DNA of 58,523 nucleotides, filler included, from Stramenopiles sp. TOSAG23-6 (GCA_900128565.1; 2 parts of 2 records of this genome joined end to end with filler, not necessarily neighbours in it), one strand, 5' to 3'; shown: positions 1-58,523, counted from the whole stretch's first letter. The notes: a model not told the origin generated them from the sequence alone. A program made the numbers and translations.

Positions 1-3000
1 GGTATGAAAGAGAAATAAAAGAAGAAATTTTAGAACCGCAATCGAAACTGCAACATGTTTCAAGTGGATTTGCAAAACAGGTCAATCGTAGCTCCGCGAC
101 TCCATCGGACCTTCCACAACTTCAAATGCGATCTTCTACACGAAATGGAGGCATGGGAATTTGGGATATGCATGAAAATTCGATAAAGTCAATGTATAAA
201 GAATCCTTTAATTTGAGAATATCAAAAAATAGTATATCAATTTCTGAACATAGAATTCCTCTTTCTTATTCAAGAAATTCAACAATGATATATCATCATC
301 CTATGGATGCCCCATCCCATTCAAAAACAGCCAAAAGCAAAAATATTCCAAACAACAAAAAGCAAATTACAGAAATGCAGTAGAAAAGTTTGTCGATATA
401 GTTTCGCAAAGACAACAAAATCCACTGGCTACTTTTCTTCGAAGTAGCAACTCATATGAAACAAATGATATGTATCGTAGAAATAGACCGAAAACTGTTG
501 GTAAAAGTCTGCAGAATTATGGAATGCGAGATTGCGAATCTCAAGGAATTGGAAGTGCTCTATCACAAAGTTCTGAAATTCATGTATTAGATCTCAGTGG
601 AAACCATTTTACTAATAAAGGAGTTTCGGCAATTCTTTCGGCGGGTCTTGAAACAAATACTTCTTTGGTCGAATTAGACTTTTCAGGAAGTAGAATGGGT
701 TCAAAAGGTGCCGATGCCCTCTTCCAATACATTTGTCGACCAGAATGTCGCATGTATGTTTTATTTTTTTTTTCAATTTTGATTTTATTTTTCGTACGCA
801 ATTTTATCCCTAACGATTTTTTTTTGAAATATTTTTCCAAAATACATAGAAGTTCTCAATATATCAAAAAATAATCTAGGCGACAGTGCTATATCATCAA
901 TCTGTGAAGCTTTGGATCGCAACAAATATCAAAACACGTCTCTCATTACACTAGATATATCACACAACGGAGCAGGCAATAAAACTGCGACAGTTCTTGC
1001 AAGAGTTCTCGGTATGAGCACAAGTACAATTCAAGATCTGAATTTGAGTTGGAGTCATATAAGAGGAAGTGCATTTGTTTCACTTATTATGTCTATTATG
1101 AAAAATAATTCTTTGAAATCACTTGATGTGTCTTGGAACATTCTTGGAAACGGGGGTGCCCATGCAAAACTTCCCAGTAATAGTGCAAAAGTTTTAAGCC
1201 AACTGTTCCTTTTTAATAAATGTCTAACACATCTCAACCTTGCAAACTGTAGATTAAATAAGACTGATGTCGTTGAAATTGCAAAGGGTTTAAAAAAAAA
1301 TGAAACTATCTTTGGTTTACATTTTGAAGGAAACTCTGGCTATGTTGATGGCAATGGATTCTTGAAGCCATCAGAATCGCAAGGATATAAAGGTACTGCT
1401 ATAGAAGTTGCGCCTAGTCGTCTGAATGAAGTCGCTTACGCAAAGCAAAATTTTAATGGTGGAGCTCATTCGAATCATCCACAAATACAGAATCTCTCGG
1501 GACAAATTATGAGACAATATGGCAGCTGTTTTATACCTTCCAAAACGACAGAAAAATAACATTGATACTCACACGGATAAGGATTCGCTTCATCCAGAAG
1601 AGTTCAGCGAACCTCATGATAAAACAAACTCAAGTGCATCTGGAAGTTTCCAACCAATGCAGCTAAAAGAGAAATATTTTAACAATCTTCCAGTTTGTAG
1701 AGCATACAATTTTGGAATTTGTACGGCTCAAGCGTTTAACATGTGTAATAATGCACATGTTTGTTGGGTTTGTCAGAAACCACACTCTTGTAAGTCTCAG
1801 GCGCGATGTCGTATGAAAGTGTCATTACCTAAAAAGTCAAGATTAAGTTGTCCATGTTGGATATGTGATGAATGGTCAGCATATGAATTTCGATGGACTC
1901 CTGGTATTTCAGGTGACATTTTTGACGAAACAGATGTATGGGTACATCTTTCTATTGATGATTGGAAACCGGCAGTGCTTCATGCTGATTACGGTAAATT
2001 AAGCACTATTAGAATGATTCCAAAAGGTGTTCAGGTGGAGTATGTACGTTTCAATTTTTTTTTCAATTTCAAATTTGTTTTTTTTTCGTACCCAATTTTG
2101 TACCTAACGAGTTCTTTTTATACTACATTTTTGAAATATTTTTTCACAATACATTATTTTACTTCTAGTAAACGAGGGCCGTTTACTGCATCGGATCAAA
2201 ATTTAGGTGTATGTGGAACGCAAACATTCCCTTTGGCACTTTTAAATTATGTATACGTAATAGCTGATGATATTGTAAAAAGTGTGAAGAATGAATTCAA
2301 CGACGAAGAATCTTCTGATAGCGATGTAGAAAGTGAAGACTCCCAGAAAATAGCATTACTTTCAAAATATAAACCACGACAAGAACCTCCAAGTAAAAAA
2401 CTCCAACAACAGAGAATTAATGTTTGGTCTCCGAATTCTTCTGTCTGGATTTGGCGTCCAATATCATGTGATTCGCGGAGTTTTTATACAACTCACTTCG
2501 TATTGGACTTCTCTTGTGAAACGGAATGGAATAGAATGAAATGTCGCCCAGGGCTTTTTAGATTAGTGAAACGCATTAATGGAGAACGAGAGATGAATCT
2601 TCTTAGTCTTGCACTTCGAGAACATTTTGTTGTGCTTTGTAGAATATTTAATTTTTTATGTGCAATATCGAGTTCAGCACAGGATAGTAATCCATTTCAA
2701 TTATATTTTAATGTATTCTTTCGTGTCGTTTGTTGTACATGGAAACTCAATATGAAAAGGGAAGTGATATTGGATTTGTGGAAACTTACCACAGAGAATG
2801 AACATATTGAAAACAAACTACAAACAGAGAAATCTTTACCAGTTAAACAAAAGACAATGACCCGTTCGGAGTTTTTTGAACTAATTATTCGCATCATTGC
2901 ACAAAAGCTAATTCGAGCAAGGGTTGTAGATAGATTGTCAAAAGGAGTTGGTGTACTCCTCAAAGACTTTTTGATCCCAAATTTAAAGCTTCATCCTCTA

Positions 3001-5177
3001 GGTAACTATATCATGAAAGATCAAAAGGAATGGCGCCACAGAGAGTTATATAGAAAAGTTATTGACCAAACATTTCGCTTACACTTGATACAACTTCTTA
3101 ACATATTTAGATTTTGGGCGAAACGTGATATTGCATCAGATGAAAACTTACGAAAGATGACAATGGATGAGTTCTGTAGTTTTTGTCAATGCATTGGCTT
3201 TGTTGAAGATACAGTAAACAGAAAAGAGGAGTACATTCTTTCAAAAGAACAAATTAAACTGATATTTATAGATTCACGTATGATACTGATTGATACAGAA
3301 TGTGAGGGAACTGTGGGATTAGCATTTGTTGATTTTCTTGAGGCATTGTTGCGTCTTTGTGCACAGCCTGAATTAAAAACAGTCTTACATAATCCTGAAG
3401 TAGAAAATGAAATTGTGGTTAAAGTAAAAGCTTCAGAGGCAAACAAAAACGAAATGGAACATAAGAGGAAAGATACAGATAGAGAGTATGGTTTCAAAGA
3501 CAAAGCAAAGCATGGAAATCGTGATAGTTCAGTTGCTGTTGTTCCGAATCAAGAAGTTGCTAACAGCAATTCAAGTGTAGTTGACCCATTTGAGTCCCCA
3601 TCAAAGTCAAATGAGGTATCTGATTCCTCTTCTAGTACTATTTCAAGCACGGCATCTGAGTCTGAAGATATTGAACCGTCATTATCTCTAGAATTAAAAC
3701 TGCTTTTGTCAATTATATTTAAACGTATGCCGATTGCACTGAAACGACTAGTAGAACAGAAAAAGATGAAAGAAAAACACAGTATAAATCTACGCAAATA
3801 CTCAAAACTTAACTATGCATCAACTTCAGTTCAATTTAATACTCGTGTAAGTATATTTTCAAAGAAAGCTGGTTACGACGAATCATTTAAAAACATTGAA
3901 TTACCTGCTTGGCAAACGTGGATGTCACAAATAATGATTTACGACCCATCTTTACTTGATATTTTTCTAGAGAGACTAAAATTAAGTCCCTCGAAGAATT
4001 GTACAAAAGAGCGACTGCATCATCAGATGTCTGATGTGAATTGGTTATTTGATGTATCTAACGGTATGAGTAAAAATTTACAACGTGATTTGATCAATGA
4101 AGCGTGTGAAGTATTAGGTACAAATGGGGTTTTCAAAAGTAACATTTTACTGTCCTATCTTTCGTATTTTCGACCGAATCCTACAAAAAACAAATTTTGA
4201 TATTCGTGACAGTATTTTTTGGTAAGCGCATTCAAACTTGTTCAGCACATGCAGCATTTAATACAAATAAAGTATTTGAAGAAGCTTTCCAATCAGAGTT
4301 TGATTTAATAATTGGAAACTTTACTGAAATTTTAAAAGACGAAAAGGAAAAAGACGATTTAAAAAACACAATGTCTAAGTTATACAAGCAATTTGTGTTT
4401 TTTTTTAATGTCGTCTGCATTTTTTTGTAAACAATCCGGTTCAATTTCTCATGCAGGATTTAGTAATTTAATACACGACATTAAAATGGAAGACATTGCC
4501 GAGGATATTTGTGACTTTGATGGTATTTTTAAAGAAAATGTTGAATTAAATAGAAATCCTTCAACGCAGCAAAAATTAAATTTGGGTCTGAATCGATTTC
4601 AATTCTTAGCTGCTATGATCAAAGTTGGATTGAAAATATTTTATGATTCGAATTCAAGTCCTGGTGAAGCAATTGTCGTTTTTTATAACAAGCATATTTT
4701 ACCTTTTGTGAAAAAAAAAAAGAAGAGCCTTTTGACATTTAGATCTTATTTAGACCGAGAAACATTTCGCCGGCGATTTCTCTACGCCTCAGCAGCACCA
4801 GCTATATTTTTGCGTTCCAAATCCGAAATATTAAAGGAAATATTTTTGAAATGTAATAAAACCAAAGCAAACACAAAAAACACAAAAGTAATAAGAAATC
4901 AAATGATAAAATGTCATGGGAAGCTTGGGAAATATTTGTAAATTATGCAAATATTAATAATTTATCGCATATACCAATTCGAATAGCATTCAATCATTCA
5001 CATATGTTTCAAGTGAAAAAAATATTCCAAGAAAGTTTCTTAACATTTGAGGAATTTCTGGAAGCTATCTCAAGACTAGCTCATATGACTGGCCAAAAAC
5101 GTCGACCGCTTGTATTGAACATTAAGGATCTGTGGACAGATGATGTACTCAACAATATTCTTGACAAACTTTCATGA
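1..5177 (+). CDS. Large RI-like leucine-rich-repeat protein with Cys-rich region and EF-hand-like C-terminal modules; 5'-partial, two non-canonical introns, several apparent frameshifts
   Basis: LRR motifs (LDLSGNHF, LDISHNGAG, LNLSWSHI, LNLANCRL), then CPCWICDEW..FRWTPGISG and FVDFLEALLR / FEEFLEAISRLA. Pieces 126-383, 470-874, 912-1559, 1519-4200, 4197-4430, 4393-4941 and 4911-5177 join through introns 754-847 and 2044-2154 and 1-nt shifts, mostly in A/T runs. Confidence 0.7.
754..847 (+). other. Non-canonical family intron (GT...AT, 94 nt)
   Basis: cgc at|GTATGTTT...CGTACGCAATTTTATCCCTAAC...CAAAATACAT|a gaa; removal gives the LRR CRIEVLNISKNNLGD in frame with ORF 912. Confidence 0.85.
2044..2154 (+). 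other. Non-canonical family intron (GT...AT, 111 nt, in frame, no stop)
   Basis: gag tat|GTACGTTTC...TTGTACCTAAC...CACAATACAT|tat ttt; removal gives VQVEYYFTS and deletes an out-of-place Phe-rich insert. Confidence 0.8.
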
Positions 5178-7709: not shown

Positions 7710-8062
7710 TATTCAGCTACTTTCGTGCCTATCAAGGCGAAAATATGCATAGAATCATCTAACAAAGCGGTCTAGCTTTGTTTCATTCTTGAAGTCTTTG
7801 ATTTGACTACACAACGATTGTGCAAGTACACTTGTGGACTACTAAGACTACTAGCTACTAGTAGTAGTACATACTGGTACCATAGCTACCATATAGGAGG
7901 AGACAGTCGATTTTTGACAGTTTCTCAAAAACCGTCAAAAACCGCCGGTCGCGTCTCCGACGCAATCAAATTGAGAAAATGTTCTACTCACAAATAATGA
8001 AGAAATAACTACATCTTTTTATAAATATAATACTTCGCTGGCGAAAAATTTGTTCAACTTTT

Positions 8063-11000
8063 TCACGCTGTAGATTTAGGTCTGTCCCATGTCATTTCTT
8101 TGGTTACCTTGTTATAGAATATAGTTTTCTGAGTAGCTTCATCAGTATAACTAACCCAATCTTCAGGTAAATCATTTAAATTACTTTCACTTGCATTACA
8201 GTGACCACTTTCACCTTCACAAATATCACTTGGTTGAATTTCCTCCGGATTCAATGAAATTTCAATACTGAGGGAGCCTGTTGCATCACCATCAACAAAT
8301 ATATTAGGCCCGTGTTTAGAATTCCGTGTTTTCATACCGCTTTTTGATCGTCCATGTTCCATTATAGCTTTTGCAATTTCCGTTCCTAGAACTTGGTGAA
8401 TATATCTTCTTAATGGTCTTGCGCCATACATCGGTTCATATGCTTGCTCTACAATAGTATCAATACCATTGTCCGATACAGTCAAATTAGCTCTGTTCCC
8501 TATATTAATATCGAATTGATTCACAAGTATTCGAGTGATCTCTGTTAATTGGGGCATCGATAAAGAAGCAAATATAATAATATCATCCAAACGATTCAAA
8601 AATTCAGGTCGAAAGTGTTGTTTGACTTCTTTCATCACAGACTTTTTAGCCATATTTAAACTTTGTTTGTTCTTTGAATCCGTGTACACATCTGCAAGAA
8701 ACTGACTGCCCAAATTAGATGTCATAATGATGTATGTATTGCTGAAATCTACAGTAACACCTTTTCCATCTGTTAAACGTCCATCATCGAGAACTTGAAG
8801 GAAGGAAGTCAACACAATTTGATGAGCTTTTTCAATTTCATCGAGAAGAACAACACAATATGGTTTTCTCCTTACAGCTTCGGTAAGTTGACCACCGCTA
8901 TCATGTCCGATATATCCCGGAGGACTTCCAATCATTCTTGCAACGGAATGTTTCTCCGAATATTCACTCATATCTAATCGAACAATTGCATTTTCATCAT
9001 CAAATAATTGTTCTGCTAATGCTTTTGCAAGTTCTGTTTTTCCCACACCCGTAGGACCGAGAAAAAGAAATGACCCAGATGGTTGATTTTCGGCACCAAT
9101 ACCAGCACGACTTCTTAATACTGCATTCGTCACAGCATCAATTGCGTCATTTTGACCAATGATTCTCTCATGTAACTTATTACCTAAACTAAGGATACGA
9201 CTCTTTTCGCCTTCACTAAGCTTTGACAATGGAATCCCTGTAGTTTGACTAACAACTTCTGCAATATGCTCAGGTGCAATTACATCAGTTAAAAGAACAG
9301 CGGCATCATGATGTTTTCGATACTCTTCTATTGTTTTTATTATTTCTGCCCGTCGTAATTCTAATTTTGGTTTCACTGTATGAAGTAACCGTGATACTTC
9401 GTCAACATCTGTATTTGCTTCATTTTCTAAAGCTGATAGATTACTATTAAGGTCGTCAATATCCTGCTGAACCTTGTGAAGAGAATCCATCCTCTCCTTT
9501 TCTTCGGCAAGTCTGCTTCTCATATCTTGCAACTCGTCTCTAGTAGCAGATAGCTCAATGTCAACAATTTCTAATCTCTGAACAATTGGTGATTCACCAT
9601 CCAAATTTTCATCTCCTCCTAATCCAAACCAGGATACAAATGTGGCAAATGTTGAACCATTTGCTGTACGTTCGATATCACGCTGCAAAGATCTTTGTTC
9701 TACAGCAAGTTGCATGTATTTTCTCTCTAGATCCTCCAACTGCTCCGGTTGACTATCTAATTGAACTCTTATTTTTGCACATGCTTCATCAATTAAATCA
9801 ATTGCTTTATCAGGATTAAATCGGTGAGATATGTATCTATCTGATAATCGAGCAGCAATTCGTAATGTCTCATCCAAGATACGGACCCCATGGTGTGCTT
9901 CATACCTTTCACGCAAACCTCGAAGGATAGCAATGGTGTTTTCAACATTCGGTTCTTCTATAAGAACTTTTTGAAATCGACGTTCAAATGCCTTGTCTTT
10001 TTCAATATATTTTCTATACTCATCAGTAGTTGTAGCACCAATCACACGGAGAGATCTTGCAAGTGCAGGCTTTAATAAATTTGCACCATCCATCGATGAA
10101 CCACCACCTGAACCAATCAAACTATGAATTTCATCAATAAATAAAATTACATGTGAAGATCTCTCAGCCTCTGCAATAACTGACTTTAATCTGGCTTCAA
10201 ATTGACCCCTCGCACTTGCACCAGCTATCAGCGCGGCCAAATCTAGCGAATATATGTGAACACCAAGTAAAGAATGTGGTATGTATTGTGAAAAATATTT
10301 AAAAAAAAATCCCGTTAGGTACGGAATTTCGTACGAAAAAAAAAAAAAAAAAAGATATGAAAACGTACACCATTCCAGAAACAATCCGCTGAGCTAATCC
10401 TTCAGCGACAGATGTCTTTCCTACTCCAGGGTCCCCAATAAAAACAGGATTATTCTTTTTTCGTCTGGATAAAATTTGTACTGCACGACGAATTTCCATG
10501 TATTGTGAAAAAATACTCAAAAACAATTGTTAGGTACAAAATTTCGTATGAAAAAAAGATGAAATAAATAATGAAAATGTACATGTCTCTCCCTATGACA
10601 GGATCTAACTCCCCAGCTTCAGCTTTTGCTACAAGATCTAATGCGTACGTTTCTAACGCAAAAAAATCTTCATCCGCAGTAGATCCACCACTTTTCTTAC
10701 TAGAACGATCACGACTATAACCTTTATTATTTCGATGTTTTTGATTTCGTTCATTTTTGGACGTATTCGTTTGACCTCGACTTTTTCGAACTTTGTTAAC
10801 TTGTTTAATGACAGAATTTGCCGTGAGAAGACCTGTTTTCTTTAGTAAAGCTGCGACATCTTTATCCTTTAAAACTGCAACAATAAGATTGTAATGTGTA
10901 TAATATATCAAAATAAAAAAAATGATTATTAAGGTACAAAAGATTACGTCACTGTAGTATTATTTTTAAAAAATATTCCGTATTGGTCAAGTCCAATATG

Positions 11001-11399
11001 AGTTTCATCAGTTTCTAATCGTTCTTTATTAGCCAGACGGAGTACGGCAGATAGTTCGTGTGTTTGACCAAGTTCAAGTGGTGCAGGCGACTGACGAGGT
11101 AATGCAGAAACTTTCCTCCCAAGTTCAACCAAAAAGTTTGAAATGGTTTTACGGACCTTCATTGCTGTTGGGTTTCCACTGATTGACTTTTTCAGGAGCC
11201 TTTGACCAAAAGATCCTTGATCTTCAAATAATGCTCTAGCTAAGTGCATCTGAGAACATGCAGGATTCTTACGTTTTCTAGCAGTTTCTTCTGCTTTCTG
11301 ATATACCTCTAAAGCTTTGTTTGTAAGCTCAAGTTGCCCATTGACAGAGGAATTCAGCGAAAACAGACAAAAAGTTAAAAGTATGCAACGTATAAACAT
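8063..11399 (-). CDS. clpB: ClpB/Hsp100 AAA+ chaperone with N-terminal signal peptide and C-terminal WW domain; 4 exons (11399-10984, 10888-10583, 10497-10369, 10280-8063)
   Basis: [64 protein letters not shown] motif [10 protein letters not shown]...[14 protein letters not shown]. Confidence 0.92.
10281..10368 (-). other. Non-canonical family intron (GT...AT, 88 nt)
   Basis: gga atg gt|GTACGTTTTC...CACAATACAT|a cca restores [15 protein letters not shown] (ClpB consensus GDVPESL). Confidence 0.9.
10498..10582 (-). other. Non-canonical family intron (GT...AT, 85 nt)
   Basis: gac at|GTACATTTTC...CACAATACAT|g gaa restores [12 protein letters not shown] (consensus DPVIGRDEEIRR). Confidence 0.92.
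10889..10983 (-). other. Divergent non-canonical family intron (AT...AA, 95 nt)
   Basis: gac ca|ATACGG...TTTTGTACCTTAAT...CACATTACAA|t ctt restores the Clp-N motif HIGLDHLIVAVL. Confidence 0.75.
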
Positions 11400-11585
11400 T
11401 TGCGTTCTTCAGTGGGCTTTGACGGTCCGTGTTTAGATATTTATCGGGAAACAGAGTTGTTCCTTTTCCTTATAATGGTTTGATGAAAAGAATGTGAAAA
11501 GTTTCTTTTTTATCGAATCTTTTTGTCGTGTCGTCAGCAGGCAGGATGTTCGGATTTGTCGGATATATTAATTTTCAAACATTGG

Positions 11586-11600
11586 AAACCCCCAACCCTA
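11586..11600 (-). promoter_or_regulatory. Degenerate telomere-like box upstream of clpB
   Basis: AAACCCCCAACCCTA on +, about 190 nt upstream of ATG 11399. Confidence 0.35.
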
Positions 11601-11739
11601 GTACATAATTTATATTTTCATCAATGTGATGTATTTCATTCTCTCGTATAACAACTAATTTATCTAATGCGATTTTATTTTAAAAAGAAAGCAAGAAATT
11701 TTAAAATAATATATATATGATGACGCGCTGCGATTCTAT

Positions 11740-14700
11740 CTACACAACAACATTTTCACCATCTTGCATATTTACAGAATTCTCTTCACTCCGTCGTCTA
11801 AAAGAGAGTTTTCTTAATTTTTCCTTTGAGCAACATTTCTTAATAGACGTTGAATGCATTGAAATCACAGCAATAATATGAAAAAGTATACATGTCACTG
11901 CAAGCAAGAGCATCGTCATTTCGCACCATTTCGGTATAGCATCTGTTTCTTTTTCACGAGGTACAAAAGAGAGTGCGAGTATTACATGTATTGTGAAGAA
12001 ATATTCGGGAAAAAATCGTTAGGCCTAATTTTCATAATAAAAAAAAACAAAAATTCATGATGAAAACGTACAATCATCTCTACTGATGTGCACCCGGAAA
12101 GGAAATTATCATGCCAACTTCCTAACGGTCGCCATAGAATGTAACAGAATAATTCAATGGCAAATAAAGCAATAAGAACAATTGCCTGAACTTTGCTATC
12201 ATCCTCATCCTTGAATTTTCCAATACAAATACCGCGAAATAATTGTAATGGGAGTAGAACAATAACCAAGAAAAATACAGCACCACGAGATCCTGACATA
12301 TCTTCAAATAATGGTCCCCATTTAGCGACATATCCCTTATTTCCATCCCCATCAGCATCTTTCCACTCTTTTTCGTCTTTATCCCATACTGCTCTTGCAC
12401 CCTGTTCGTTATAAACTTCTTTATAAATCTTATACGTAGCTATCATCATAAAACCGATTATATATACTACAATAAAACCAAAAACTGCAGCTACTATAAA
12501 AAACGAAACTTTACCATTGACCAAATTTGCCGTTGCTGCTTCTCCCAATCCTTGGAAAACAATCAATAGAACTAGAACTTCATACCTGGGAAATTTACTT
12601 TCTGTTATCCTTTCATTTACGATTTTTCCTGCAGACTTTCGTAAAAGTGTCTTACCATCAGGGCCAATTAATCTTTTCTCAGAATTCGGGAGGTAGATTG
12701 CAATGCGTTCACCAAGAGACACTCTTCGCAATGCCACCTTTTTATTCTCTTCATTTTTTCTAAAGCTTTCATCACATCGATGCTTACCAGATATATCCAT
12801 ACCTAATTCATACATTGAGCTTCTTTTTTTCCTGATTCCTGTCATTTCGATATCTACGTCCCCAGGTGTAACGCTTGTTAATGAAGGTGTAGTATCGTCC
12901 ATTTTTAATTGGACGGTACCAGTATCTTGCCCATCATTGCCAACACTTTGATGGTCTCTCATCCGAGTCAGTTTTCCACGTTGTTTGTTGCTTTGGCGAG
13001 GAGAAAGAAGTAAATCCATACTATTCTTAGGAGAAAGGAGTGAGTCCTTATTAGTAGCTTTAGCTCTAGCTACAGGCGATACAGTTCTAATCATGCTATT
13101 CTTCCGTAATGCAGCAATTGGTGACGAAAGATTTAATTCGTTAGACGAAATAACAATAGCATCATCAAACTCTTCTTCTTCCGGCTTCTTCTTTTCACAA
13201 CAAAATATTTCTCTATATTTAGGAACTCGTTTATCAAAGAAGCATCCAATCACAATGATGTGAATTACAGCTACAGCGATACATAAAAATACAGCCCATG
13301 TTACATTTGCAGAAAATACTTCCAAATGGAACTCTTGTAAAGCTCTCGCATAATTAACAGAACTGAGAACGACTGTTGTATCCACTTTATCTGCAGTCAG
13401 AATAGTATGTTCATTCTCATCTTCCGTTTTTGATACATCAGTATCTTTTTTTTTGAGTCGTCGTCTTCTTGATTGTAAAGAATAGAGTTCATTTTGTTTT
13501 ACTTTTGATTCATTCTTTGCTGCTTCTTGGGCCTCTTTCCATGTCAACATTGCTTTTTCATCATCACACAGCCATAAATCTCCAGTGTCTGTTTTGAATG
13601 ATACAGTACTACCAAGTATCATTAATATAAAAGCTATCAATAGTAATGATATGCCAAAAGCTACCTTTCGAAAACTTCGCCTTGGTTGAATCGTAAGTTC
13701 CTCCACGCCATCACCATCCTTTAATGCAACACTCTGTAAACGCTTAGTAAACCAATCCCTCTTTTTACGTCGTAATCCATCAACTACAAATAATATTCCT
13801 ACAGGTATAAAGAATAAGACAGAATAAATAAAGAACCAACTTTCAAGCTTAAACCAACACCAAATTGGACGGATGCCTCGCAAGTTAGCCCATCGAACTT
13901 GATCCGCAAACCCAGATAATGTTGGAGCCCAATGCATCTGAGATACATTTGACAATAGTGACAAAGTTTGAACGTTAAATATTAATAGCCAGACAGCATT
14001 TCCAGCCATGCCTGAACCACCACCTCCTGCAGCAGCATTACTTCCTCCAGACATAAAAGCAGTGGGAGCACTAGCTACTCCTGCTGCTGCACCGCCACTA
14101 GCACCTGCAATACTAGCAGCAACTGTGCCAACTACGACTGTTGCTGCTACGCAAGTCGTCGTTGTCTCCCCCAAAGCTTCTACAGTCGTAGGTTCCAATA
14201 CAGGTTCCGGTTCATCTTTATTCTTAATAGTATATTTTTGATTAAATAGTATAGGATCTAGCGCAGGCGTATTCTTGCTTTCATTGCATGTTTTCCCTGT
14301 CCATCCAATCTCGCAAGTACAGGAACCATCATTAGCAACGATACCTTTATTACTACAAGTTTCTTTGTTACTATATTGACAATTCAATCCAGCATATGTT
14401 GCTGCGCAATTCTGACACGAAGCACCAGCATATTTTGTTGTACATGTGCACGTTCCTAAATTATCCACATTACCACGATTATTACAAGTAATAGCGTCTG
14501 TAAATTGACAATATTCTCCTTTGCCAACAGCATTACATTTACAAGTACCTTTATCATTTTTAACTGTCACGACGCCATTACCATTGCATGTGCCCTTATT
14601 ACTGAATTGGCATTTTGTTCCAAAATATCCATTACCACAGGTAGAGCAAGAGTTGTTACCTTTCCAAGCATCTACACATTCACATGTAGCAACGTCAAGT

Positions 14701-17084
14701 GCATCAACTTTGACATCTCCTTGATCATTGCAAGTTTTAGAACGCGAGTATTGACAATTTTTACCAGATAAACCATTTGTACATGTAGAACAATTGGCGC
14801 TTCCTTTCCAGTCGTTATCGCATGTACATACTCCCTTTGCACATGTGCCATGTCCACTACAGTTATTGCCATTGCATGGATCTGGTGAAGCATTTTTACA
14901 TACTAATCCATTATTACTTGTCTTTCCAGAAGGACATGCCGAGCAACTGCCTTTTCCCACATCAGGTTGAACTTTACCAACGGTACAAGCTTGGCATCCT
15001 GAAGCAGGAACTGCCCCAGTATGATGCGTACCTGCATTACAAAAACAGTCAGTCAGAGCTGTAGAACCCGTTTGCGTTGTTGTCTTTCCTGTAGGGCATA
15101 ATAAACATTTTACAGATGAATTAGATACCTCTGTTTTGTATTTTGCTAATGCACACTTTTCGAAGTTTCCTGCATTATTTTTGAAATATCCCGGTGCTGC
15201 TAGACAATCAGTTGGGAGAACAGTTCCTTTTGCTTTTGTAGTAGAGTTTGCTGGACAAGTACTACACGCCAATTTGCTACCGCTAGTTGGTTGATATGAT
15301 CCTAGTGCACATATAGCGCAACCACCGTTTCTAGGACATGTATTCGTTGCACCATATCCTTGACCACATGAACCACAACCCACAACTATCCCATTATGGA
15401 GAAAATGTGAAGTGACGTTATCAACGTTTTTCGACACCAAATATTTCTTTGTATTGGTATTCAGAAATATTGCTTCATTCTTATAAATAGGAATCAACGT
15501 TTTATTTCCATCACAAGTAATTTTGAAACTTTGAGCGCTCGCAATTGTACAGATTTCATTGCCGAATGCATTGTACACTTTGACTCCAGCCTTAAATCCA
15601 TGAGATGTTGGAGTCGAACCACTGTCATGAGTAAATGATGATAATCCAGCAGGTTGATAGGTTGCACCTTGAATATAAACAGGTTCGCCAGAATAAATAC
15701 AATCTTTTGTATCATCTTGGGTCTTGCTGCCCGTTTGAGCAGTGCAATTTTTACATGAGACATTGTCACTGTTTCCTTTGCCGTCACATGTGTCTGATTT
15801 ATATTGCACTTTAGTGCAAGTCGTACATTTCAGTGCTATATATTATGGGAAAATATATCAAAGTAGAAATTCGTTAGGTGGAAATTTTTCTACGAGAAAA
15901 ATAAATTTGAAATTCATGATGAAAACGTATATACCTCTATTATTCACATAGAATCCTTGTTTAGCTTGAGCACAAGGTTGATGGTCTTGTGGCTCTCTTC
16001 TTTTGAAAATCATTGCACCAGATGGAATAGCAACTGCAGTACCTGTACCAAAGGTAAGCTGATTCGAGGATTTCCCAGTAATTCGAGGCAAATCGGAACC
16101 ATCGACCAAGTAAGGGATTTGCTTTAGGTGTATTACTTGCGCTACGTTAGTAACACCTGCAGGAAGGTTCACCCGCATTGACTTTGTACCTTTTGGATAA
16201 GCTTGATATGCAGTAAGACCTGTGCCCTTAATATCGACACATGGCTTTGTATTTGTTGCCACAGCATCTACAGCACAATTAGGCTGAGATTGACACTTTG
16301 CACAAGCACCAGCTCCATTAGAAGTATGATAACCTGCGTTGCACTCACAGTATGGTAAACCTCCACTAGTTATTGTCCATAGAGGGTGATCAATCCAATC
16401 ATCAACCTTCGTCGGAGTGTCCAAGCAACATCTACATCCCCAACCTGGAGTCGACTGAGAAACCATAGTCAAACCAGAAAAACTTCCGGAATATGTTTTA
16501 CAAGAATTATTTGTTTTCATATAGTCATAACACTTCTTTTTCACACAGTCCCAATTACAACTACCAGAAACTGCATAAGTACTTGAGCCGTAACCGTGAC
16601 TATACTCACCTCCCTTGACACCAGTCGTGGGATGCGTTTCACATTCTCTTCCATCGTTGGTCGCTGGTAATGTTTTACAAGCCCCATGGCCATTGCAAGG
16701 GTTTCCAGCACCTCCAGCGCAAGTGGCTTCACATTGAAATCCGGCATAACCAGTGTTGCACACACAACTACCACTAACTTCAGAGCCATGCCCATTACAT
16801 TTTGGTGGTCCTTGTTGCTGATCACACTTAGTGAAATCACTGGGGCAAGCACCAGCGCCATTATTATTTGGTTTAATACAATAATAACCAAAATTTTGAT
16901 CAGCGTTTTTCCGGACACAAAGTTTGGCATCTGAGGCACTTGAACCATTATTAAATCTCCCGGATATGCCGTTTTTGAGGGAGCCGTTACCACTGTACGA
17001 AGCGCTACATTTTTTTGAACATGCTGCAGCATCTACTCCTGAAAATAAACTTAAAAGTGTTATAGTAAGGAATAACTGAACCAT
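11740..17084 (-). CDS. Large surface protein: signal peptide, EGF-like and TNFR/ephrin-receptor-like Cys repeats, multi-pass TRP-like transmembrane region; 3 exons (17084-15931, 15837-12072, 11985-11740)
   Basis: MVQLFLTITLLSLFSGVDA signal peptide; CNGHG..C.C..GY.G..C repeats; multiple hydrophobic helices with KWGPLFEDM; last exon VILALSFVP...ENVVV* is open only after intron removal. Confidence 0.8.
11986..12071 (-). other. Non-canonical family intron (GT...AT, 86 nt)
   Basis: atg att|GTACGTTTTC...GGCCTAACG...CACAATACAT|gta ata gives the TM helix SVEMIVILALSFV. Confidence 0.85.
15838..15930 (-). other. Non-canonical family intron (AT...AT, 93 nt)
   Basis: ggt at|ATACGTTTTC...CCACCTAACG...CATAATATAT|a gca joins ORFs 15858-17108 and 11982-15809 (GFYVNNRGIALKCTTC). 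Confidence 0.8.
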
Positions 17085-17381
17085 GGCGTATTTGAATCCC
17101 GATTTCAAGAAGATTGCGTGTACATAAATACGTGTGTTCGTTCGTTCCTACGGATATAGGCTAGGAACAAAAAGCGAAGATTCAAAGATTCGATCTGATC
17201 CTTTTTTGATGGACACGTTGAACTCCTCGCTTATAAAAAAAATCAGATTTCGTGTTTTATTAGCCGGTGCAAATGACTCGCGGTGTTCTGCTGACTGTTT
17301 TTCTTTACTGTATATTTCAAGAACAGTATTCAGGGAATATTATTAAACAAGAAACTGAATCGACTGAATTGATTTAAAAGA

Positions 17382-18269
17382 ATGGATATGGTGAATGTAT
17401 TTTCCGCTTTGGATGTATCAAAGAAGAAAAAAAATAAAAAGAAAGCGAAAAAGTCCGTAAAGAAGAATAAGGTTGTTGAAGCCGCGAAGCTTGAAGAAAA
17501 CTCGATTACAGGTAGTCCTATTTTTGCCCCGTCTGCTCTTCCTGAGTTTGGTGCTGGAGGAGCATTGGCATGGGCAGATGAAGATAATTCCGAAGATGAG
17601 GATGGATTTAGTTTTGGTAGTAGTATGCCGCCAATGATGCCCGTTCTTCCACCGATAGCTGGTGCGGAACCTGCTGAGGAAGAAGATGAGGAAGAAGTAG
17701 AGAGCGAAGAGGAAGAAGAAGAAGTAGAGAGCGAAGAAGAAGAAGAAGAAGATGATACAGTGGAGAATACAGTCGGTATGGGAATTACCGCGCGCGCACC
17801 TACAGCGAAGAAAGTGATTGTTCGGCAGATATCTAAGAAGGCACAGAAGAAAGCATCTAACGCAGAGTTGGACGCAATTCTTGCTGAATTTGCAACACCA
17901 GCCGTACCAGAGGTCGAGTCAAAACCAACAAAAGAACAGGAAAACACAGAGGATAATCATGTAGATAATGACGACGAAGATCTTGCGTTACTTGGAATAG
18001 TTTTGGGGGGTGGTAAAAAGAAAACGAATAAGAAAAAGAAAAAGAACAAAAACAAGAAAAAGAACAAAACCAACCCTTCTACACAAGTTCCACTCAAGTC
18101 CAACCAAGCGCCAAATGATATCAAAGATGTTAAAACCTTTTTGGCAAATAAATTAAAGAAAAAGCCATCTAAATCATCTTTGAGGATGAAAGCAGCAGCT
18201 GAAAAGAAGAAGAAGAAAACTAAAGTCAAAGATAAAAGTCACTACAATCAAACACCTCAAGGTAGATAA
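17382..18269 (+). CDS. Low-complexity acidic/Lys-rich hypothetical protein
   Basis: 295-aa ATG ORF with poly-E and poly-K tracts and W-AD-E-D and ELDAILAEF motifs. Confidence 0.7.
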   Translation: MDMVNVFSALDVSKKKKNKKKAKKSVKKNKVVEAAKLEENSITGSPIFAPSALPEFGAGGALAWADEDNSEDEDGFSFGSSMPPMMPVLPPIAGAEPAEEEDEEEVESEEEEEEVESEEEEEEDDTVENTVGMGITARAPTAKKVIVRQISKKAQKKASNAELDAILAEFATPAVPEVESKPTKEQENTEDNHVDNDDEDLALLGIVLGGGKKKTNKKKKKNKNKKKNKTNPSTQVPLKSNQAPNDIKDVKTFLANKLKKKPSKSSLRMKAAAEKKKKKTKVKDKSHYNQTPQGR

Positions 18270-18430
18270 TGTTGTCAAGGGTTTTAAAGTCTTCATTGAA
18301 TGACAACACACAATAGTTGCTTTTCCTATAATTACTATTATTCACTTTATTTGGACTTATAATAATAAATTCAGAAATTAGGTTTATATCACAAACCTTT
18401 AAAGCCTTTAAAGCCTTTAAAGTGTAGCAT

Positions 18431-24130: not shown

Positions 24131-24283
24131 GGCAAATGATCATGCCTCAAAACATATTGTTCTGTCATGTTCTATCTAAACCATTGTTTGACTTTTTACA
24201 ATGTTTTGAATCTTTCTTGAAATCTTTCTGACCAGGCCGCACAGGGACAGTTTCAAAAGACTTACGTTATAACTTATCTAGCC

Positions 24284-24298
24284 TAGGGTTAGGGTTAG
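24284..24298 (+). promoter_or_regulatory. Telomere-like box upstream of the aspartyl protease gene
   Basis: TAGGGTTAGGGTTAG about 190 nt upstream of ATG 24484. Confidence 0.5.
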
Positions 24299-24483
24299 AA
24301 AATGTCAGTAGTCAGTCAGTCGCAAAAAAAAAAAAAAAAAAAAATAATATGACATTTTCATAGAATGACATTAGAATCCTTACCTACGTTTGCTTGAGCT
24401 ATTAGTGCCCTTCGGAAAGAAGAAGTGCTTCCATTGTTTCAAAAGTGTATTACGTTTACTCTGGAAAAGGCTATTTATTTCAG

Positions 24484-42162: not shown

Positions 42163-44538
42163 TTAAAATCTCCTTCTTCGTCTTCTTCGTTTTTTTTTTC
42201 GCCTCTTTTTTTTTGCCTTGCGTTTAGCTTTTCTCTTGGTCTTCCTTGCTTTTCGTTTCTGCTTTCGGTACGTCTTCTTGGCTTTTTTGCGTTCTTTTTT
42301 TGCTGCTTTCTTCTTTCTCTTCTTCGTCTTCTTCGCCGCTTTCTTGTCTGATTTTCTCTTTCTACGATCATCCTTTTTCTGCTTGCGCAATTTTTTTCTC
42401 GCTGCTTTTCTCTCAGACTTTGGAAGCTTTCGGATCGCCTTCCTTTTCCCTTTCCTGGCTTTCCGAGCTGACTTTTTCTCTTTGCGTATATTTTTCTTGG
42501 CAGCTTTGTAATCTCTTTTTGCCTGACGTTTAGCCCGTCTTTTCTTCTTCTTTGACGCCTTTTTCTTTTTGCGTATATCTTTCTTGGCTTTTTTGAAATC
42601 TTTCCGTGCTTTGCGTTTCTCTCTCCTCTTCGTCTTCTTCGATGCTCGATTTTCCTTTCTCCTCTTTTTTTTAGATGCTCTATATACTTTTTTTGCTTTA
42701 CGCTTATCTTTTCTCTTCTTCTTCTTCGATGCTCGTTTCTCTTTTCGTCTTTTTTTCTTGGATTTTTTGTAATCTTTTTTTGCCTTTCGTTTATCTTGCC
42801 TTTTCTTCTTCTTAGATGCTCTTTTATCTTTGCGCCTTTTCTTCTTAGATGCTCTATAATCTTTTTTTGCCTGACGTTTATCTCGCTTTTTCTTTTTCCT
42901 TGCTGCTTTTTTGTCTGCTTTTCTTTGTTTGCGATCATTCTTTTTCTGCTGGCGCAATTGTTTTCTTGCTGCTTTTCTCTCAGACTTTGGAAGCTTTCGG
43001 ATTTCCTTTCTTCTATTCTTTCTGGCTTTACGATCTGCCTTTTTCTTCCCCCGTAACTCTTTCTTTTTATTTTTGTAATCTCTTTTTGCCTGACGTTTAG
43101 CCTGTCTTTTCTTCTTCTTAGATGCTCTTTTATCTTTGCGCCTTTTCTTCTTAGATGCTCTATAATCTTTTTTTGCCTGACGTTTATCCTGTCTTTTCTT
43201 CTTCTTAGATGCTCGTTTATCCTTTCTCCTCTTTCTCTTGGATTTTCTGTAAGCTTTTTTTGCCTGACGTTTATCGTATCTCTTCTTCTTCCTGGGGTTT
43301 CGATTTATCCTTTCCATTCGTTTATCCTTTCTCCTCTTTCTCCTTGCAGCGCGTCTCTGCTTGCGTTTCTCCGACTTGGACATCACTTTATTTACACCTT
43401 GTTTGACCAAAGCCTTTCCCCTTTTCACACCTTGTTTGACCAAACCCCCCAAACCCACCAAACCCCCCAAACCCATTGCTTGTTTTACACCAGATGAATC
43501 CTTGTTTTTATTATCCTCGTCACCCCAATCATCATCATCATCATCATCGTCGTCGTCGTCCCAGCTATCGTCTTCATCGTCTTCAGCTTTAGCTTCCTTA
43601 GCTTCAGATTTCGCTTCCTCGGCTTCAGATTTCGCTTCCTCAGCTTCAGATTTCGCTTCCTCGGCTTCAGCTTTCGCTTCCTCGGCTTCAGCTTTCGCTT
43701 CGTCAGCTTTGACTTTTGCTTCCTCAGCATCTTCTTTCTGTTTAGCTTCAGCTTCATCAGCATCTTCTTTCTGTTTAGCTTTAGCTTTATCAGCATCTTC
43801 TTTCTGTTTAGCTTCAGCTTTATCAGCATCTTCTTTCTGTTTAGCTTTAGCTTTATCCGCATCTTCTTTCTGTTTAGCTTTAGCTTTATCCGCATCTTCT
43901 TTCTGCTTAGCTTTTGCTTCCTCGGCTTCTTCTTTCTGTTTAGCTTTAGCTTCTTCGGCTTCTTCTTTCTGTTTAGCTTTAGCTTCTTCGGCTTCTTCTT
44001 TCTCTACAGCCTTCTCTAAAGCTTCTTCTTCTTTTTTTGCTTTTTCTGCTTCTTCCTCCTTTTTCTTTTGAGCTTCTTCCGCTTGTTCCTCATTCCTCTT
44101 TGTTTTTATTTCTTCTTCTTTTTTCTCGGTTTCTGTTGAGCTCGCGCTTTCACTAGTTTTTGAAGTTGAGGGACCGAGAAAGCACTTTTTACAGTCGTCA
44201 CCGTCTTTCATTTTTTTAATGCAGTCGCAGTCAATCTTTCCAAGGTCGTCGACAGAGAAGAAAACACCTTCACCAAACGATGGAAAGACTCCAAAACTCT
44301 CTGTTGTATGATGAGTCGCTTTATCCTCGTATGCATCACATCCATTAATCATTTGTTTTCTAGTAGGTGTGGTGTCGAAAGGAACTAACTTTTTCTCCTT
44401 TCCTTTGCCGATTAACGTAAACAATTGAATCCGCCTCTTTCGTCTCTTTCGAGACTCACGTTGGACTTTACTATCTGCATGAAATATCCTACTGAGCAAT
44501 AATATTATTATCAGCTTGGCTGGTATAAAGCCCCACAT
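42163..44538 (-). CDS. Putative secreted protein with acidic repeats followed by an about 400-aa extremely Lys/Arg-rich repetitive tail
   Basis: Hydrophobic N-terminus (LIIILLLSRIFHA), Cys motif, (AKAKQKEDADK)n, (EAEEAKS)n, (KKDYRASKKKRRKDKRASKKKKRQDKRQA)n. Confidence 0.75.
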   Translation of the reverse strand: MWGFIPAKLIIILLLSRIFHADSKVQRESRKRRKRRIQLFTLIGKGKEKKLVPFDTTPTRKQMINGCDAYEDKATHHTTESFGVFPSFGEGVFFSVDDLGKIDCDCIKKMKDGDDCKKCFLGPSTSKTSESASSTETEKKEEEIKTKRNEEQAEEAQKKKEEEAEKAKKEEEALEKAVEKEEAEEAKAKQKEEAEEAKAKQKEEAEEAKAKQKEDADKAKAKQKEDADKAKAKQKEDADKAEAKQKEDADKAKAKQKEDADEAEAKQKEDAEEAKVKADEAKAEAEEAKAEAEEAKSEAEEAKSEAEEAKSEAKEAKAEDDEDDSWDDDDDDDDDDDWGDEDNKNKDSSGVKQAMGLGGLVGLGGLVKQGVKRGKALVKQGVNKVMSKSEKRKQRRAARRKRRKDKRMERINRNPRKKKRYDKRQAKKAYRKSKRKRRKDKRASKKKKRQDKRQAKKDYRASKKKRRKDKRASKKKKRQAKRQAKRDYKNKKKELRGKKKADRKARKNRRKEIRKLPKSERKAARKQLRQQKKNDRKQRKADKKAARKKKKRDKRQAKKDYRASKKKRRKDKRASKKKKRQDKRKAKKDYKKSKKKRRKEKRASKKKKRKDKRKAKKVYRASKKKRRKENRASKKTKRREKRKARKDFKKAKKDIRKKKKASKKKKRRAKRQAKRDYKAAKKNIRKEKKSARKARKGKRKAIRKLPKSERKAARKKLRKQKKDDRRKRKSDKKAAKKTKKRKKKAAKKERKKAKKTYRKQKRKARKTKRKAKRKAKKKRRKKKRRRRRRRF

Positions 44539-44728
44539 CACTATTCTTGGCTATAACCAATAAGAAGAATGGGTGAATTTGAACGTGGGCATAGAAAAGT
44601 ATGTTGAACAGTCTGTGTTCGTTCTTCTTTCACCAAGTCAAAATTCAAATTTGAAATTTGAAAAATTTCAAAAAACTTCGTCGCGAAATGAATTTGCAAT
44701 TTATTTTTAAATATTAATACGAATTTTG

Positions 44729-46148
44729 TTACTCAAGCTTCCGTTTCTTTAACTGTTCTACATTCTCTATATCATTACTATCATTACTGTGACCATGACA
44801 ACAACCATCATCACATTTGAGCATTTTACGTGAATCTAGGTTTTGAATTTTTTTAGTCATACAGAGTTGTTGAAAAGTCGATTTTAGTTCATTTTCAGCA
44901 CACGAAATGTCACGACCAATAAAAACAATGGACGATTTCCTTTTATTATTTTCTATTTTCCAGTCGTACCCAAAACTCGCACTAATATCTTGACCTACAC
45001 CATTTACAACAAACATTCGATTCTTTGCTAATTTCGGAGAAAGTACACCACTGTCTACATTTATGATTCCTTTAGTACGAAGCAGTTTTGTTCCAATTTT
45101 TTTGTAATACTGTTTCAAACCACAAATGAAGTCCACGTGATGAGATTACAGCACCATGCGGGGTAGTTATAGTAAATGACTCAATAAAATCCTTTTTTAA
45201 AGCTTCCATATGAGACTTTGGTGATGTATTAATACAATCTTTAGACTCAAATTCAGCTGCTCTTTCAAACGCTGCAGACATGTTATGCATTCCATTATTA
45301 GTAGAAAATAACCTTTTCAGTGACAAGTCACAATAATTACATTCAATAAAGGTAATCAAAGGGTTAATTTGCATAACATGGTTCTTTATCTTATTCACAT
45401 TAGCCGAAGTTTGTGAGTCAACTTTATTCAATATTAAAAAATCAGCAAAAACGACTTGTCGCTTTTGAATCCAAATAGAAGAGTCATTTTGATATAGTTT
45501 TGAAAAATGATTATTTTTCTCAATATCCAAACCTAACTGTACATTCTTTGCATCTACAACTGTAATAACCGATTGCACATAAAATCTAGATCCTTGAATA
45601 CGCATTCGTTCAAATGTGCGTAAAATTGGCTCAGGAATTGCCAAGCCTGTAGTCTCAATAATAACATGATCAAAGTTTTGGTTGTCCATGAACAGAATTA
45701 ATTTATCCAAAACACGCTCCAATTCATTTCCAGGTGTATCTTGTGAACAACAAATACAACCATTCTTCATTACATATATTCCATCTTGTTCAATACTCGA
45801 AGTTTCAGCGACATCGTTGTTCAGGGTTAGTTTCTGACGAACTTTTAAAAGAGCATGATCTATAGAAATTTGTCCAAATTCATTCACAATTACAAGGAAT
45901 TTCTTTTTAATATCTGAAGAACCAAGAATTCGATTCAATAAAGTTGTCTTCCCTGCACCGAGAAAGCCAGTAAGTAATGTTACAGGCACATCTTTCAGAC
46001 GTTGAGACTCTTTCGATGAACAATTAGACAACTTGTTCGACTTTCTGTCAATTCGCTGCTGCTGCCAAAATTCCACCAACCAAGCAAGAGCATTTGCAAC
46101 GAACAATGAAACTAAAAGGAAACATGCAATCAGAAAATATGAAGGCAT
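44729..46148 (-). CDS. CobW/COG0523-family metallochaperone GTPase, with an apparent +1 frameshift near 45097-45103
   Basis: PVTLLTGFLGAGKTT, VNEFG, NGCICC, IETTGLA, NKVD; CobW_C LLRTKG...VFIGR is in the neighbouring frame. Confidence 0.85.
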
Positions 46149-53537: not shown

Positions 53538-53576
53538 AATTTACTCTACTATATGTAATCCTTTTAGCAAAGTTAT

Positions 53577-56680: not shown

Positions 56681-58459
56681 ATGGTGATGGACCTACAGCA
56701 CCCGCGAGCCTTAGTCCGTGTGACTGGGCACAAGCGAGCGGAAGGTCGTTACTACTTTGCATATGCGCTCTTAGCATTACTGTACTCGGTGATTTTGTAC
56801 AATTGTTACATGACTGCTGGCCAGCCATACGCGAGAGCACTTGCTGAAGGTATGGATTTAGCAGTGAAAAAGGGAACTGCACCGCCCCCTATTGACTTCC
56901 ATTCAAAGGCAGTTGGTGATTTGGCTAAACGGATGGGTGGTGCTCGATCATCGCCTAAGTTTGAATTTGATATTGGGAATGATGACTGGGGTGAAGAAGA
57001 TTCTGATGAAGTCGAGAAAGTGGAAGAAACTGTATCAGATGGCAAAGTTGTAGATAACACAGAAGACACTGAAGATATAGATGATGATGATGATGATGAT
57101 GATACGAGGTCATTGCCTTCAAAGTATTTGCCTGATGTCATTCCATCGATATGTTTGTTCCTTCTGTTAACTTTGACTGCTTTATTTCCATTATTATGTC
57201 ATTGGTCTGTGGATTTCAAAGCACGTATGTTATTTTCAAACGCGACTGATATCTCCAGTGCTACACATCTATTAGTTCGACCTCATATGCATCGCGGAAA
57301 AGCATCACTTGAAAAAATATTTCGATCAAAATGCAATGGAAAACTTGGTTTTGAATTTCAAAGACAAAAATATATTTATTTATCCGCAGATGAGTTGAAG
57401 GCTCATCACAGAAGTCAAGTAGAATCGAAAGAAGAAAAGATTTCGAGTTCTTCTGATGGCATCGATGAAAATCCAAATGAAATTATAGGAAATGGTGCAG
57501 AAAATGGAGCAGTCCAACTCGTTCAGTGTGTCTGTAATGCGCCTCTTTCGTATTATGTAGATTCGGGTGGTATAGTTGGTAAAGACGTATGTTTTTTTCA
57601 CCTCATTTTTTTTTTTCGTACGAAATTTTGTACGTAACAATTATTTTTAAACAATTTCGAATTTGGTATATTTTTTCACAATACATGCTGTCAATAACGC
57701 AGAAGAAAAATTTGGTTTAAATCGAATGTCCATTACAATGCCATCATTCTTGGAATTATACCGTAATCAACTTCTCGCGCCTCTTTGTATTTTTCAATTT
57801 TTTGTCGCTTTTTTATGGCTTTTGGATGAATATTGGCAATATACTTTATTTAGTATATTTTCTATTTTTATGCTTGAAAGTACTACGACATTTCAACGTC
57901 GTCGGACAATGCAGACTCTTGCAGGTATGGCACAGAAGCCTTATCCAATCCAAGTATTTCGTCATAATATATGGAGTGAGATGACAACAGCTGAGCTACT
58001 TCCAGGTGATTTAATTTCAATTCGGGCAAAGATAAAAGAAAAAGTTCCAAAACCAATGGAGTTAATGAATCCAAAGGAAAAAGAAGAAGAATTAAAACGT
58101 CGCAAGGAAATTATGAAGCGTCGTAAGGAACAGGCCATTCGTGCTGGTGGTGTTGTTGGAGTACATTCCGATATTATACCATGTGATTGCGTTTTGATTA
58201 GTGGTAATGCAGTTGTGAATGAATCTTCTCTTACTGGAGAAAGTGTACCTCAAATGAAAGATGCGCTTCAATGCCGATCTGACTCAGATGCAAAGAGAAA
58301 TCTCGCCCCTGATGGTCGTGATCGAGTACATATCCTCTTTGCTGGCACATCATTGATTACAGCATCGCCAGGTAAAGTTGTTAGTAATGGTAAGAATACA
58401 AAAAAGACACCAATTATAACACCACCAGACGGGGGGTCTCTTTGTTATGTAATGCGCAC
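56681..58459 (+). CDS. ATP13A1: P5A-type ATPase (ATP13A1/Spf1-like), 3'-partial; exons 56681-57586 and 57687-58459
   Basis: CHWSV, FEFQRQKY; after intron removal FGLNRMSITMPSFLELY..QLLAPLCIFQFF...WLLDEYWQY, LLPGD, PCD, VNESSLTGESVPQMK, PPDGG.LCYVMRT. Confidence 0.9.
57587..57686 (+). other. Non-canonical family intron (GT...AT, 100 nt)
   Basis: aaa gac|GTATGTTT...CGTACGAAATTTTGTACGTAAC...CACAATACAT|gct gtc opens the P5A ATPase frame. Confidence 0.9.
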
Positions 58460-58523
58460 GTATGTTTTATTTTTTTTCAAATTCGTTTTTTTTTCGTACG
58501 AAATTTTGTACCTAACGATTTTT
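58460..58523 (+). other. 5' part of family intron, truncated by the window end
   Basis: cgc ac|GTATGTTTT...TTCGTACGAAATTTTGTACCTAACGA; interrupts the expected R-T-G-F motif. Confidence 0.85.

Follow-up and report, generated by a model that had tools for sequence, protein, structure and literature searches.

Introns that derive from transposons and depart from the GT-AG rule are already known as a kind. In the tunicate Fritillaria borealis, passages of two reports describe non-canonical introns that originate from miniature inverted-repeat transposable elements (MITEs), have AC or AT 3' ends and are removed by a U2-type spliceosome with diverged U2AF paralogues; the 5' ends are also non-canonical, the introns being mostly AG-AC and AG-AT, and less than 10% of all introns obey GT-AG (PMC11282704, PMC13326754). 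The repeated non-canonical introns of Amoebophrya are portrayed, in the relevant passages of the source, as bearing inverted repeats of 8-20 nt that form hairpins and direct repeats of 3-5 nt, with no common splice motif (PMC7789003). The introners of Micromonas and Aureococcus are canonical GT-AG introns, outlined in one passage as short elements with terminal inverted repeats (TIRs) and target site duplications (TSDs), in which one splice site comes from the element and the other from the duplicated target (PMC11282704). For the nonconventional introns of Euglena, the passages at hand give a CDG...CHG signature together with pairing of the ends as necessary and report release as circles (PMC12501133), and for the non-canonical introns of hemistasiid diplonemids they give G/C-rich paired ends (PMC12621601); in both groups, these passages note strong end pairing (CAG/CTG or G/C-rich repeats) with neither a pyrimidine tract nor complementarity to U1 (PMC12501133, PMC12621601). 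Here, a family of introner-like inserts is described from Stramenopiles sp. TOSAG23-6 (GCA_900128565.1), in a window of 58,523 nt (the whole stretch analysed, in which two parts of two records are joined end to end with filler). The combination of canonical 5' and branch signals with a last base derived from the target, in a new host lineage, appears to be new, and the organism probably splices without the usual AG end signal.

One family of 85-149 nt elements is present in 16 copies in 9 genes of the window. A family profile built from the 13 complete copies and run on the window with nhmmer recovers all 13 at the coordinates given below (E 3e-17 to 5e-4) and also matches three truncated copies (29163-29221, 29322-29359 and 58476-58522), in agreement with a sequence-only reading of this DNA that had listed 16 related insertions, 13 of them complete. 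The 24-nt core of the element occurs 13 times in the window at up to 3 mismatches versus 0 times in 100 shuffles, and two instances go beyond the earlier listing, one being the extra core of copy 23120-23268 and the other a core that stands alone at 26270-26293. All 16 copies, across the 9 genes, lie in sense orientation relative to the host open reading frame (ORF), and insertion occurs in all three phases (six copies in phase 0, two in phase 1 and five in phase 2), both as previously noted. Selection for removal from the transcript predicts such a strand rule, while excision at the DNA level would not need sense-only placement. The element is found in many similar copies in unrelated genes and the profile matches stop at the insert borders; its earlier description as an introner-like family is thus upheld.

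The consensus of the element reads, in order, a 5' GTAYGT, a T-rich stretch of variable length, the palindromic core TTCGTACGAAATTTTGTAC, CTAAC immediately after it, a T-rich tail and GAAATATTTTTTCACAATAC followed by two bases. The conserved 3' block CACAATAC precedes an A and one variable base at the element end. Copy 25345-25454 exemplifies this layout, with the 5' site at 25345-25350, the core at 25388-25411, CTAAC at 25407-25411 and the end of the 3' block at 25454. The 5' end conforms to an extended U2-type 5' splice site, with G1 in 10 of the 13 complete copies and T2 and A3 in every one. Similarly, 12 of 13 copies carry a CTRAY-like branch motif at a distance of 32-47 nt from the 3' end, with a T-rich tail after it, as expected of a U2-type branch motif and pyrimidine tract; in the one remaining copy this position reads GTAAC. 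By hand count on the alignment, about 38 of 221 palindrome positions deviate from the consensus versus 4 of 65 CTAAC positions; the CTAAC branch motif is thus kept where the adjacent palindrome has decayed, especially in the most diverged copies.

Excision of exactly the repeated unit gives one open frame over 240 nt in 13 of 13 complete copies. When the 3' cut is shifted by 1, 2, 4 or 5 nt in either direction the frame is open in 0 of 13, and shifts of 3 or 6 nt in either direction keep it, as expected by arithmetic. The ORFs that flank the complete copies are all intact, and the unit to be removed is the repeated unit itself. In the ClpB/Hsp104 gene, exact excision yields a stop-free model of 1022 aa that aligns without gaps to 10 homologues at all three element junctions, which bears out the earlier claim that ClpB motifs are restored. 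Numbering in solved ClpB chains is continuous over two of the junctions (187|188|189 and 230|231|232 in 9ip0), and the TAXi_C profile matches exon 2 of the aspartic protease from profile position 2 onward. At 57587, the P5A ATPase junction falls in an unconserved region, and its upstream exon has no solved relative.

In the register of the element alignment, nine copies have GT-AT termini and the other four have AT-AT, AT-AA, AT-AC and GT-GT, one copy each; the borders can slide by 1-5 nt without change of product, and the dinucleotide labels are hence not unique. When every allowed register is listed for the 13 complete copies, none ends in AG. The AG of U2-type introns is found at 0 of the 14 visible 3' ends, exactly as the sequence-only reading had claimed. 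The first AG 3' of the branch motif, when combined with the consensus donor, breaks the frame in 9 of 13 copies. At copy 23120 this AG is in frame and a stop is then met, and in three copies (10498, 25650 and 25908) it is in frame and open. At copy 10498, use of the in-frame AG would put six residues into the DPVIGRD/EIRR region.

The consequence of GT-AG sites for the protein can be followed in a public gene model of the ClpB locus. This model, P0002, is the best match of ClpB exon D among 1.84 billion representatives (96% identity), maps letter for letter onto the window at 8066-11399 (minus strand) and is 873 aa long versus 1022 aa for the exact-excision model. It contains 12 GT...AG introns of 24-153 nt, of which 9 cut a continuous conserved ORF, and it mishandles three element copies. 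Reading continues into the 10889 element; an AG 18 nt inside the 10498 element is used, with IIFSQY added between DPVIGRD and M-EIRR; and after RIVSGM the model enters the 10281 element and rejoins at SVIAEAE, which removes the conserved residues beyond the junction, the VP motif among them. Ten homologues are continuous where P0002 is altered. Judged by these alignments, the public ClpB model forces GT-AG sites and damages the protein.

In 12 of 13 copies the last removed base repeats the one directly ahead of the insert (permutation p 0.013), and this identity covers both cases in which the base is not T (a/A at 10889 and c/C at 25908). In 7 of 13 copies the match to the upstream sequence extends to the last two bases (p 0.07). 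Position -2 is occupied by A in all copies but one, and in that copy, 25650, the border can be shifted to read GT-AC. We infer that the last base stems from a target duplication of 1-2 nt, with AT preferred, whose downstream copy becomes the intron end. The cut would then be fixed relative to the CACAATAC block, neither by the identity of the last base nor by a fixed distance from the branch. The hallmarks of a transposon are present, in the form of a terminal stem of 5-6 bp and the last-base target duplication, but both are short and weak. Other placements of the borders were rejected: AT-AC as a common register is allowed in only 4 of 13 copies, TG-CA termini without duplication fail at 57587, and cutting 2 nt upstream at both ends predicts a mismatch at 12073, where an RNA contig has 0 differences.

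Three RNA runs and one DNA run were compared with positions 8001-27000 of the window, and absence of RNA cover is given no weight. Positions 185-564 of a 564-nt contig from a poly(A) metatranscriptome (X6 record 8) align to 12069-12448 with 0 differences; the alignment stops at 12069, which is the predicted exon edge of copy 11986-12071 plus 3 ambiguous nt. A second RNA contig (X8 record 30, 255 nt) aligns over its positions 1-191 to 26003-26193 and stops at 26003, the predicted edge of copy 25908-26003 plus 1 ambiguous nt; it reaches 26003, not the in-frame AG 12 nt farther on. Thus, two contigs break at predicted exon edges, which points indirectly to removal in RNA. Of the AG-independent splicing proposed from sequence alone, one part stands, as AG acceptors cannot explain the frames, while removal in RNA is suggested by the two contig breaks, an indirect kind of evidence. 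DNA contigs of run X3 retain the element at 11023-12068 and 21053-23259.

Contigs of runs X3, X7 and X8 also contain joins at 25454/25649 and 25739/25649, in which an element 3' end runs directly onto an element 5' start; these reflect either tandem copies elsewhere in the genome or circular or head-to-tail forms in the RNA runs. In a collection of 5.8 billion proteins searched for fragments that cross the junctions, a ClpB exon B query found no match, the last 125 residues before intron 11986 found no match and the first 400 residues after intron 15838, compared with the shorter proteins only, found one distant match of 30%.

The reading preferred here, to which we assign a probability of roughly 0.6, is that a major-type spliceosome removes a MITE-like introner at a non-AG 3' site chosen by position, and that it tolerates a last base other than G. 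A miniature DNA-transposon-like element would have multiplied in genes across the compact genome of a marine protist and would supply its own major-type signals, namely GTAYGT, the CTAAC branch motif, the T-rich tract and the fixed 3' block CACAATAC. The transcript would be cut before the G of GTAYGT and two bases past CACAATAC; this cut would remove the element together with one copy of the 1-2 nt target duplication and restore the original coding sequence. The 3' site would then be A plus whatever base the target supplied (mostly T), and as such a site is not AG, the second splicing step in this lineage would have to accept a non-G last base. The cut point may be set by the conserved 3' block, possibly aided by pairing of +1 to +4 with -6 to -3. 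It is also conceivable, although we hold this with considerable doubt, that the transposon bears an AG-independent 3' splice site of its own, in which pairing of +1 to +4 with -6 to -3 through the terminal inverted repeat leaves two unpaired nt, an A and the target base, as an overhang offered to the catalytic centre, with the cut set by position.

Several observations weigh against removal by a major-type spliceosome. We know of no precedent in major-type introns for G(+1) with U(-1) at the second step. In 4 of 13 copies an AG lies 6-13 nt after the branch motif and would need to be skipped. The 13 copies are related, and conservation among them is partly a matter of recent common descent. 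As for the RNA, the 15 of 200 joints listed are all joins between repeat copies, with no exon-exon joint among them; a further 184 letters of X6 record 8 and 64 letters of X8 record 30 lie beyond the breaks; and an allele free of the insert could also yield such contigs. Element-bearing contigs are moreover very deep in RNA runs X7 and X8 (2780 and 4589 in the bin 25119-25752, versus single digits on exons), which could reflect retention or DNA carry-over, such depths being uninterpretable.

Removal from RNA without a spliceosome, guided by short end pairing as has been proposed for the euglenid, Amoebophrya or diplonemid introns and perhaps with release of circles, is an unlikely route, although the element ends lend themselves to it. 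Two exon bases plus GTAY can pair with RTAC plus the last two bases in a possible short terminal stem of 5-6 bp (atGTAY with RTACAT, 83% of cells paired), the G1:C-3 pair of this stem changes to A1:T-3 in two copies and to G:T in one, the cuts are staggered by 2 nt relative to the stem, and a variable last base fits a cut set by position rather than by sequence. However, the two A1:T-3 copies may be one subfamily and hence one event, and a third A-initial copy (10889, outside the stem alignment) retains C at -3. The stem is far below the inverted repeats of 8-20 nt given for Amoebophrya in the passages cited above (PMC7789003), and the N3-CDG...CHG-N5-6 signature that the corresponding passages give for Euglena (PMC12501133) is absent from the element, in which positions +4 to +6 read YGT and CHG is missing at 5-6 nt from the end. 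GTAYGT and CTAAC are, in addition, well conserved. RNAalifold on 11 of the 13 complete copies found no consensus structure, and the z-scores of single-sequence folds (12 of 13 copies) range from -2.0 to +1.4, are mostly near 0 and reach -2.0 in only two copies; no consensus fold together with z-scores near 0 argues against a structure-driven route.

A minor (U12-type) spliceosome in diverged form is a very improbable agent of removal. The 3' ends AT, AC and AA and the three A-initial copies resemble the variety of U12-type introns, which tolerate several 3' end dinucleotides, but neither donor, branch sequence nor branch-to-3' distance fits. The RTATCCTT donor occurs in 0 of 13 copies, as had been reported from the sequence; the branch motif lies 32-47 nt from the 3' end, when U12-type branch sites lie about 10-20 nt from it; and the motif is CTAAC preceded by TACC, not TCCTTAAC. 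Hardly more credible is that the transcripts are spliced at nearby GT-AG sites and the altered proteins tolerated, or that the interrupted genes are decaying. P0002 does use 12 GT-AG introns, and an in-frame AG is available for 3-4 of the 13 copies, yet the first AG breaks the frame in nine, the P0002 protein gains six residues in DPVIGRD/EIRR and drops the VP stretch with 9 of its 12 introns cutting conserved ORF, and X8 record 30 extends to 26003 instead of the AG 12 nt on; the intact flanking ORFs speak against decay. Least of all do we expect that the inserts are cut from the DNA of an expressed nucleus, as are the internal eliminated sequences of ciliates, with the RNA contigs transcribed from insert-free DNA. 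Precise excision and short repeats at the borders would suit such a process. By contrast, strict sense orientation in 16 of 16 copies would be unexpected, the repeats at the borders do not consist of TA, the element persists in metagenome DNA contigs from two loci, and the long ORFs of the window lack in-frame stops under table 11, with no hint of a ciliate-type code.

Set beside the described systems, the window element shares with the Fritillaria introns a transposon origin, a non-AG 3' end and attribution to the major spliceosome. Unlike in Fritillaria, deviation is confined to the last base, with a standard 5' site and branch motif, and the host is a protist; thus, the 3' end fits the Fritillaria type and the 5' end does not. 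Amoebophrya is likewise a marine protist, and its introner elements also form repeated introns that have inverted ends, short direct repeats at either border and termini other than GT-AG. The window element differs from these, and falls outside the Amoebophrya type, in its stem of 4-6 bp, its repeat of 1-2 nt, the lack of a significant fold and the strong GTAYGT and CTAAC. With the introners of Micromonas and Aureococcus the window element has in common a short TIR/TSD element whose target duplication contributes to a splice site, but the target-derived base here gives a non-AG end. The euglenid and diplonemid introns resemble it in their non-GT-AG borders, TSD-like repeats and pairable ends, whereas the window element is AT-rich and weakly structured and carries major-type signals. 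The uniqueness implied by the sequence-only reading was therefore overstated: non-AG introns of transposon origin with a U2-type spliceosome are documented in the Fritillaria passages (PMC13326754, PMC11282704), and repeated non-canonical introns in those on Amoebophrya (PMC7789003), euglenids (PMC12501133) and diplonemids (PMC12621601).

The copies are spread over genes of varied function. An LRR gene is interrupted in phase 2 by the copy at 754-847 (plus strand, 94 nt, GT-AT), and ORF 1513-4200 by that at 2044-2154 (plus strand, 111 nt, GT-AT), which is in frame, stop-free and readable through. The ClpB/Hsp104 gene holds three copies on the minus strand, at 10281-10368 (88 nt, GT-AT; junction RIVSGM-V-PHSLL), 10498-10582 (85 nt, GT-AT; junction in the DPVIGRD/EIRR region) and 10889-10983 (95 nt, AT-AA, the most diverged copy; junction HIGLD-H-LIVAV), with each junction ungapped against homologues. 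Also on the minus strand, an EGF/ephrin-receptor-like gene has copies at 11986-12071 (86 nt, GT-AT), near its 3' end, and at 15838-15930 (93 nt, AT-AT), and a C2-domain gene has a composite copy with two cores at 23120-23268 (149 nt, GT-AT). The aspartic protease gene carries three copies on the plus strand, at 25345-25454 (110 nt, GT-AT), 25650-25741 (92 nt, GT-GT, or GT-AC if slid by 2 nt) and 25908-26003 (96 nt, AT-AC). In a DEAD-box helicase gene on the minus strand, two element parts span 29162-29375, a 3' part at 29162-29221 and a 5' part at 29322-29375, each with its own core, and represent a composite or two copies. Two runs of 44 N (29222-29265 and 29278-29321), 12 bases apart, lie within this pair, and the structure there is unreadable. 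A HOOK-like gene contains the copy at 35854-35955 (plus strand, 102 nt, GT-AT), which is in frame and stop-free, and the P5A ATPase gene contains both the copy at 57587-57686 (plus strand, 100 nt, GT-AT) and, at 58460-58523 (plus strand), the 5' part of a copy that ends at the window end. If retained, copies 2044-2154 and 35854-35955, with lengths that are multiples of three, would add just 37 or 34 residues. The solitary motif at 26270-26293 (minus strand), between the protease and PP2C genes, consists of the palindromic core plus CTAAC without element ends; it may be left over from a full element, or the core may by itself serve as a binding site.

The window is gene-dense nuclear eukaryotic DNA of 36% G+C, with long ORFs on both strands, and is present in seawater metagenomes and metatranscriptomes from 8 studies. 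Genes named by Pfam encode an LRR protein, a Rab GTPase, ClpB/Hsp104 with a C-terminal WW domain, an EGF/ephrin-receptor-like protein, a multi-C2 protein, an aspartic protease, PP2C, a DEAD-box helicase, a HOOK-like protein, TPR-DnaJ, CobW, Kelch/MORN proteins, ankyrin proteins and a P5A ATPase; scans of the whole window for tRNAs and with Rfam gave no matches. The ClpB/Hsp104 homologue (8066-11399, minus strand) has a hydrophobic, signal-like N-terminus and a WW domain at its end (PF00397, residues 704-734 of the last exon). A comparable hydrophobic start is found in P0003, the full-length protein closest to this homologue (54% identity), and the protein atlas matches of the homologue are bacterial ClpB clusters only. 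In the CobW gene, two ORFs overlap at 45072-45145 (minus strand), 1 base out of frame, with the switch at or near a run of seven A at about 45095-45101; the split is more suggestive of a genuine frameshift or a single-base error in the assembly than of an intron. Long coding tandem repeats of extreme strand skew, with periods of 21, 27, 33, 51, 87 and 174 nt, occupy 42163-44550 (minus strand) and 39003-40058 (plus strand); their two ORFs show no Pfam match.

Searches for the element in other collections returned little. Viral contigs contained 0 and 0 matches to two element patterns, and prokaryote genome contigs contained 0 matches to the core pattern and 13 single matches to the 3' block pattern, with no element in 17 loci by profile search. 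JGI metagenome contigs queried with protease exon 2 gave just 4 distant loci, of 57-59% identity over 22-23 residues. A literature search, with supplementary tables outside its reach, found no description of the family. According to the relevant passages, large introner surveys start from annotated introns and discard families with unfamiliar splice sites unless these are supported by transcripts (PMC12130899); surveys of this design would thus miss a family like the present one. Genes of the MAST-3, MAST-4 and chrysophyte single-cell genomes were predicted with GeneWise, est2genome, SNAP and GAZE, in passages that are silent on splice-site types (PMC5778133), and a 2026 preprint on single-cell genomes of marine protists gives intron proportions only.

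Gene models restricted to GT-AG are probably wrong for this organism, the public ClpB model with its 12 forced introns and damaged Walker-A region being an example, and the proteomes of the lineage that enter phylogenomics and ocean gene catalogues may carry many such errors. If RNA confirms removal of the element, this lineage would add a separate example of a spliceosome not bound by the AG rule, and a cleaner one than those known, since the 5' site, branch site and pyrimidine tract follow the canonical pattern and freedom is limited to the last base. Such a free last base would isolate the question of what determines the 3' splice site in the second step. The element would, in addition, be a case of a transposon that creates an intron ending in a base derived from target duplication. 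Should the element in fact present its end as an overhang on its own terminal repeat, the AG rule of the major spliceosome would have been circumvented by a mobile element in a lineage of free-living marine flagellates, and separately from tunicates and alveolates.

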